The notes under the pieces: generated by a model | What the model was told of the DNA's origin: nothing | What the model saw: only the letters and a program-made list of their open reading frames with translations | Databases searched by the model: none | In this document: positions 14,187 through 14,772 of the stretch, piece after piece | How the letters are laid out: the number at the start of each line of letters is the position of its first letter | Numbering within the stretch: the stretch's first letter is position 1 | DNA from: Octopus vulgaris | Lineage: Eukaryota | Direction of reading: 5' to 3' | Length of the DNA: 64,000 bases | Assembly (NCBI GenBank): GCA_951406725.2 | Contig: OX597831.1 | Coordinates: 23,684,001-23,748,000 of the forward strand | Position numbers and translations under genes: made by a program

Positions 14187-14222
14187 CTTTCTGTCAAAGA
14201 GCATAGGCTCGAAACGTAAAAG
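14187..14222 (+). ncRNA. Degenerate minimal hammerhead motif (family H2)
   Basis: Stem I cttt/aaag, mutated core ctgtcaa (vs CTGANGA), stem II gagc-atag-gctc, then GAAA, CG and triplet GUA. The homolog at 48032-48066 has an intact CTGATGA. Confidence 0.6.
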
Positions 14223-14772
14223 AATTTCTCACTTCCTGAGCATTATATTAATACATCTGTTTGTTGTTTACACACCTGTCTTCATCTTTTGCTTGTTTTT
14301 GAAAAATCTCACTACATATGTATATATACAGAGAGAGAGAGAGAATGAGAGACATCATTCAGTCAGTATCATTAAATATATATATATATCTGGCCAGTTG
14401 GCTTGCTTGAAACAGCAGCCAGATATTTCTCAAATTATACCTTGCTATCAGATGAAAGGACATAAGGATGACGTATACCTGCGAGTCCAACCATGACCAC
14501 CCAGTACTTCACTTGGACTCACAGGTATACGTCATCCTTATGTCCTTTCATATGATAGCAAGGTATAATTTGAGAAATATCTGGCTGTTGTTTCAAGCAA
14601 GCCAACTGGCCAGATTTAATGATACTGACTGAATGCTGTCTCTCATTCTCTCTCTCTCTTTGTATATATACATATGTAGTGAGAATTTTCAAAAACAAAC
14701 AAAAGATGAAGACAGGTGTGTAAACAACAAACAGATGTATTAATATAACGCTCAGGTAGTGAGAAAGTCTTT
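14219..14772. repeat. Long inverted repeat (arms 14219-14490 and 14513-14772, 22-nt spacer)
   Basis: The arms are near-exact reverse complements, e.g. gatgacgtatacctgcgagtccaa / ttggactcacaggtatacgtcatc. Confidence 0.95.

Follow-up and report, generated by a model that had tools for sequence, protein, structure and literature searches.

A real inverted duplication bounded by a predicted hammerhead cut site in the Octopus vulgaris genome, probably of ordinary origin

The window analyzed in this study (the whole stretch of 64,000 nt of Octopus vulgaris DNA, whose own positions are used throughout) is repeat-rich, AT-rich animal DNA and contains an inverted duplication with one edge exactly at the predicted cleavage site of a hammerhead motif. 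We found that this duplication is not an assembly artefact and that an ordinary mechanism probably made it, a routine DNA copying slip being more likely than a trace of ribozyme action. The explanation that we favor, with moderate confidence, is a DNA template switch that ended at the hammerhead cut by coincidence, because a similar duplication without a hammerhead lies about 3 kb away.

The left arm (272 nt, + strand) and the right arm (260 nt, - strand) align with 10 substitutions in 260 columns, five transitions and five transversions, and a single gap of 12 nt, (TA)6 (Table 1). Both edges are sharp. At the outer edge 14219 pairs with 14772 and only one of the next 12 columns outward matches, and at the inner edge, next to the spacer of 22 nt, none of the next nine columns does. 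Since GAAACGTA ends at 14218 (14211-14218) and AAAG starts at 14219 (14219-14222), the outer edge is the predicted hammerhead bond 14218/14219. The original prediction had described an inverted duplication of about 270 bp, with its boundary on the predicted cut and with unrelated downstream flank in its arm; all three descriptions agree with the alignment, and the flank measures 178 nt past the element end at 14312, made up of a GA repeat and, at about 14390-14490, part of a different old repeat family. An RNA of the whole inverted duplication is predicted to fold with about 255 pairs (-425 kcal/mol). The original prediction named a long hairpin of this kind as a potential ADAR/siRNA substrate; none of the 10 arm differences is an A-to-G change derived in the right copy. 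Rfam miRNA matches at the centre of the hairpin were discarded, being below the gathering score and reflecting the hairpin only.

Table 1. Positions of the inverted duplication, its host repeats and the comparison duplication in the window.
Feature	Positions	Strand	Remarks
SINE-type repeat, 5' half, ending in (TA)n; hosts the hammerhead element	13970-14111	+	matches of 67-75% at about 19 other places in the window
(TA)n tract, left end of the hammerhead element	14112-14132	.	
High-copy repeat with a hammerhead (Penelope pLTR-like), one solo copy of 181 nt	14132-14312	+	between TA-rich tracts
Decayed type I minimal hammerhead, predicted cut after 14218	14187-14222	+	from sequence, fold and family letters
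Left (source) arm	14219-14490	+	94 nt of element sequence 3' to the cut, TA/GA repeats, (TA) tract, old-repeat piece
Spacer	14491-14512	.	covered in runs X2, X3 and X5; zero depth in X4
Right (derived) arm	14513-14772	-	inverted copy, lacks 12 nt of the (TA) tract, its end matches the first base after the predicted cut
Comparison inverted duplication in a SINE copy	17890-18321	.	arms 17912-18024/18187-18299, inverted spacer, no hammerhead

Contigs from four of the 24 listed runs were compared with 14132-14550 at 80% likeness, namely X2, X3 and X5, which come from three studies and from organisms A, B and D, and X4, which comes from organism C. Single contigs cross the spacer in X2 (depth 15.8, to the end of the stretch compared), X3 (13.8) and X5 (6.1), and X2 also includes a contig that carries the 12-nt gap of the right arm. 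Judging by the bin fraction, the cover in X3 and X5 ends near position 14542. This is 30 nt beyond the spacer and fits two real arms, because 31-mers merge where both arms exist. The earlier argument that substitutions between the arms speak against an artefact holds, and the contigs across the centre add to it.

An unbroken X4 contig of 416 nt corresponds to 14356-14490 with two differences and no gap, and then continues into 253 nt of other sequence (a count read from the record coordinates). No strand-change joint is listed for this contig, and there is no depth over 14496-14550 in X4, where the arm is apparently single. The contig looks like a pre-duplication allele, with a later deletion or a paralogue as possible alternatives. 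Because it has the (TA) tract and departs at 14490, the tract is taken to be ancestral and the spacer did not lie in forward orientation after the arm; if the allele is ancestral, a fold-back of the strand on itself with the spacer left in forward orientation is therefore excluded. The spacer is probably ancestral downstream flank that was copied inverted. Comparison of its orientation with six old copies that the inner repeat has within the window gave a summed p of 0.06-0.17 with neither reading significant, and either 30-nt spacer reading gave p = 0.17 against the in-window family copies.

Contigs matching 14132-14550 number 7407, 7254, 4686 and 6355 in the four runs, with the depth concentrated on the 181-nt element, of whose exact family no other copy is present elsewhere in the 64-kb window. 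TA-rich tracts flank the element on both sides, and the family thus described, a dispersed high-copy short fragment in a microsatellite, resembles Penelope-like elements (PLEs). We infer from the type of motif that the element is Penelope-like; the label rests on motif type because there is no Rfam match and because no RT or GIY-YIG frame occurs among the 150 frames scanned of 172 low-repeat window frames of at least 62 aa. Two of these 150 frames gave weak sub-cutoff Pfam matches, neither of them to RT or GIY-YIG. Exact-pattern scans of viral, metagenome and prokaryotic contigs gave 0 matches.

Stem I of the hammerhead (14187-14190/14219-14222) is present in the minimum-energy fold, and stem II (4 bp, 14199-14202/14207-14210, within 14199-14210) has a fold frequency of 0.99. 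As in minimal hammerheads, stem I has 4 bp, an unpaired base follows A9 before stem II, and stem II is closed by G10.1-C11.1; GAAA at 14211-14214 is followed by the palindromic ACGT, and the triplet at the cut conforms to NUH. The core at 14191-14197 reads CTGTCAA and departs from CUGANGA with its C3-G8 pair by A6U, which is family-wide, and by G8A, which is private to the window copy, in line with the prediction that the core of this copy is mutated. No Rfam hammerhead reaches the gathering score, and none is found in 13900-14900 up to E = 10.

Weighted by depth over contigs, and not by copy counts, the family letters have G at core position 8 (93-97% of depth), all four bases at N7 (in X2, C 35, T 30, A 25 and G 9%) and at H17 A, or T in 10-15% of depth, with G not listed. 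Only T is listed at position 6 (14194), and U6 therefore appears to be family-wide. The family has probably been selected as a ribozyme, with a non-standard U6, because G8 is kept, N7 is free, H17 is A or U and the stems fold like those of minimal Penelope hammerheads. With U6 throughout and a free N7, it is a candidate natural CUGUNGA hammerhead variant. Over the 94 nt that they share with the family, both arms differ from it at 14248 and 14284 (firm) and perhaps at up to three more positions, and as many as four changes are private to the left arm, of which the family letters confirm two. Since the arms share changes relative to the family, the duplication copied an already aged local element; comparison of the letters supports a local copy of a decayed element and its flank, not independent insertions.

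The mechanism class that we propose is an inter-strand template switch in replication or repair of the four-point type 3-1-2-4. Events of this type consist of an inverted repeat with an inverted spacer, are attributed to inter-strand switching and represent 23% of the high-confidence human-chimp events (PMC5453318). Synthesis of the new + strand would have halted at 14490, and its end would have paired with the exposed + template a few tens of bases further on. From there it would have been extended backward by about 282 nt, taking in the spacer, the flank and a portion of the element, before returning to the forward template at 14773. That this backward synthesis stopped at 14219, inside a solo and already decaying hammerhead repeat, would be chance. 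The local origin and the geometry of the duplication, its presence in several organisms and the hammerhead-free sibling are observed directly, while we infer the switch itself, the inversion of the spacer at 14491-14512 and the chance nature of the end point.

The sibling, situated about 3 kb from the hammerhead-bounded duplication, has a similar size and build. Its arms differ in 8 of 113 columns (93% alike), versus a likeness of at most 84% to distant copies. On the + strand its match to intact SINEs stops at 18024, and a - strand reading from 18330 carries on beyond the inner arm end for about 90 nt and takes in the SINE 3' end. The sibling spacer is therefore ancestral downstream sequence in inverted form. 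In the sibling, whose outer end is blurred by a microsatellite, the inverted segment measures 275-297 nt, versus 282 nt at the 14219-14772 locus. No hammerhead pattern occurs within 17700-18500. Two shorter local inversions were found at 12568-12747 and 50435-50535. The count of local events comprises four loci kept of 22 candidate rows in the 64-kb window; rows at 25346-44171, for which the comparison with distant copies returned self-matches, were dropped for low arm identity (70-87%) or short length.

The described type 3-1-2-4 (Loytynoja and Goldman 2017, PMC5453318) is thus close to what we observe at 14219-14772, a local inverted repeat copied from adjacent sequence across a short spacer, and the inverted spacer of the type is present in the sibling. 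The locus differs from it in that the end at 14219 falls on a predicted ribozyme cut and in that 282 nt is near the longest human event. Human template-switch events have a mean of 11.6 bp, the longest being 318 bp (10.1101/2021.11.26.470150), which places 282 nt in the far tail and counts against a template switch. The same holds for the end being exact to the base, and for its lying on that strand and that side which an RNA model requires. In addition, the sibling could itself be RNA-templated.

A ribozyme-cut RNA template is a tentative alternative that we consider rather unlikely. A + strand read-through transcript would be cut after 14218, reverse transcribed and joined to 14773; a + strand DNA end at 14490 would anneal to the RNA just downstream, from where RT would copy to the RNA 5' end. 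This would account for the exactness of the boundary at 14218/14219, agrees with the ribozyme-like behavior of the family letters at G8, N7 and H17, and has a precedent in R2, where ribozyme cleavage sets the 5' junctions (PMC3774820). Moreover, a sense template predicts arms arranged tail-to-tail, as found at this locus (Discussion of PMC3846280), and the 4-bp stem I, the base before stem II, G10.1-C11.1 and the palindromic 15.2-16.2 positions match minimal PLE hammerheads (PMC4209133). The private G8A is not fatal to the RNA model, since within a dimer it is the core of the partner that would cut (as the dimer model of PMC4209133 implies). The window copy was possibly cut in trans by an intact family copy, since a dimer core cuts the site of its partner and since the site and the stem I 3' strand of the window copy are intact.

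Against a cut RNA stands the weak activity reported for such motifs. Single minimal hammerheads are described without cleavage and dimers with little (PMC4209133), and a natural A6C variant had low activity (PMC3088659), while the window family has U6. For Anolis, the ribozyme is reported to need protein and to be dispensable for insertion in vitro, with zero reads beginning or ending at the site (PMC11167929). A rough estimate that G8A predates the duplication ranges from somewhat doubtful to fairly probable (33-73%). The priming site is not AT-rich, and the inner junction differs from the (TA)n target in which the element sits. There is no convincing target-site duplication: a 4-nt candidate was rejected since it is the best over 30 offsets, is expected by chance in about 1 in 10 cases and needs a forward spacer, which is absent in X4. 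The sibling has the same build without a ribozyme. Of the original claim of a ribozyme-defined RNA transduction, the local copy, the sense-template geometry and the ribozyme-like family conservation stand; the RNA intermediate is not borne out, given the sibling without a hammerhead.

Given an end within the 181-nt element, the probability of an end exactly at the cut is 1/181 (p = 0.0055, about 0.6%), and it is 0.017 within one base. The chance expectation is about 2.4 exact matches per Gb, calculated with the densities of one window (four events and five hammerhead-like sites per 64 kb). Assuming that every RNA-made copy ends exactly at the cut, the posterior of the RNA model is 0.27 at a prior of 0.2%, and it reaches 0.48 at 0.5% and 0.65 at 1%, values that speak for the model. 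These posteriors should be lowered because R2 junctions vary even with proven cleavage (PMC3774820). The prior itself is low because of the weak reported activity, the solo decayed copy and the sibling, and also because of the non-AT-rich priming site and the lack of a convincing target-site duplication.

We also looked at where copies of the family end. Position 14219 is not among the 24 listed of 777 family loose ends, whose ranking is not simply by count, and a modest excess at 14219 is possible among the remaining 753. Nor is there a rise in family contig depth on the 3' side of the predicted cut. Only one further hammerhead-family relative in the window is 5'-shortened (about 51388-51537); its start lies 13-56 nt beyond the cut predicted for it, which argues against a cut RNA. 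Two sets of joints were set aside. In X3, the joint 14265 -> 14219 was rejected as a second cut-site junction: its 10 intervening letters match 14209-14218 at 6 of 10 positions, and the true junction is therefore further upstream. The joints 14220 -> 14180 (X3, X5) were left out of the count, as they miss the cut site by 2 nt and have six intervening letters.

Penelope machinery without ribozyme action is a quite improbable source. In that case, the Penelope endonuclease/RT would have used an uncut read-through RNA in a complex local inverted insertion, and RNA structure or protein would have made it stop or switch near the hammerhead. Inverted, 5'-truncated copies and the capture of host DNA are described for Penelope elements (PMC8557442, PMC3846280), uncut RNA is the dominant template in vitro (PMC11167929), and stem II begins 9 nt upstream of the arm end. 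However, canonical inverted copies are at the 5' end (PMC8557442, PMC3846280) and mostly head-to-head, while the arms at this locus are arranged tail-to-tail and include 178 nt of host flank. The reported initiation sites are fixed, lie within the element and go with AT-rich targets (PMC11167929), and the 150 of 172 window frames scanned contain no RT/GIY-YIG frame. The inverted copy lies 3' of the element and has no target-site duplication (best 4 nt), unlike a canonical inverted pLTR. Least probable by far is an assembly artefact or a pair of independent insertions mimicking a duplication: the outer junction 14772/14773 lies outside the stretch compared with contigs and is taken from the assembly, and no listed piece spans the whole stretch, but contigs from three studies cross the centre, cover ends near 14542 as expected, the arm-specific gap recurs in X2, and the arms have common flank, private changes and both classes of substitution.

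The closest known systems each share part of this picture. Minimal PLE hammerheads (PMC4209133) share the 4-bp stem I, G10.1-C11.1, the unpaired base before stem II, the palindromic ACGU that replaces stem III and an occurrence as thousands of dispersed solo copies; the window family differs by U6 and a 4-bp stem II, and this copy by G8A and by no linked ORF being seen. Penelope inverted pLTRs with host capture (PMC3846280, PMC8557442) are alike in having an inverted 5'-truncated copy beside a longer one, a microsatellite insertion site and host DNA carried along. The locus differs in that it is tail-to-tail and not head-to-head, in that the arm starts 178-200 nt outside the element, in that the copy derives from a decayed local element, and in the lack of a convincing target-site duplication. 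R2 with its HDV-like ribozyme (Eickbush 2013, PMC3774820) shares the concept that self-cleavage sets the cDNA end, with proven cleavage and population-wide junctions in R2, versus one junction, a different ribozyme class and a predicted site at this locus. The locus is not a tandem retrozyme (10.64898/2026.07.22.740005). No hammerhead-bounded local inverted duplication is described in the titles and abstract openings searched, subscription papers being outside their scope.

The window contains several further repeats. Another hammerhead-bearing repeat occurs in three copies about 85% alike, at 820-990 (+), 39344-39482 (+) and 21780-21906 (-), and in the copy at 872 the CTGATGA core is intact and stem II has 6 bp. 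A third hammerhead-type repeat (48036-48218) has an intact CTGATGA and an altered cut triplet, and the 5'-shortened relative at about 51388-51537 belongs with it. Tandem arrays at 34513-35029, 43794-44565 and 55398-55760 have units of about 109, 217 and 61 nt, respectively, as judged by self-match spacing, and the first of them is built from the SINE 5' part. Two tRNA-like Rfam matches are located at 58885-58976 (-, 52 bits), with a longer anticodon-loop region, and at 22672-22744 (-, 42.5 bits). A cluster of local direct and inverted duplications of 43-95 nt occupies 12425-13320; inverted arms of 47 nt with a 7-nt spacer lie at 12568-12668, and inverted arms of 49 nt, 90% alike with a 2-nt spacer, at 50435-50535. 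The nearby inverted repeat pairs at 32749-33908 and 53734-54732, which appear among the 22 candidate rows as 32757-33908 and 53745-54723, have 85-87% identity and represent independent insertions or older local duplications.

On the likelier reading, the locus adds another template-switch duplication to those of repeat-rich DNA and has little import alone. With at least four local inverted duplications per 64 kb, the window suggests a high rate of hairpin-forming events in the octopus genome. If a cut RNA was the template after all, in vivo hammerhead activity in germline transcripts would have left its record in the genome as junctions of this kind, and the many local inversions of 280-300 nt would derive from RNA templates and supply long double-stranded RNA. 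The in vivo cutting and the role of Penelope-like hammerheads are called unclear (PMC8557442, PMC11167929). Where such duplications end provides a cheap genome-wide test of hammerhead activity, for which a clustering of ends at the cut site would speak directly.
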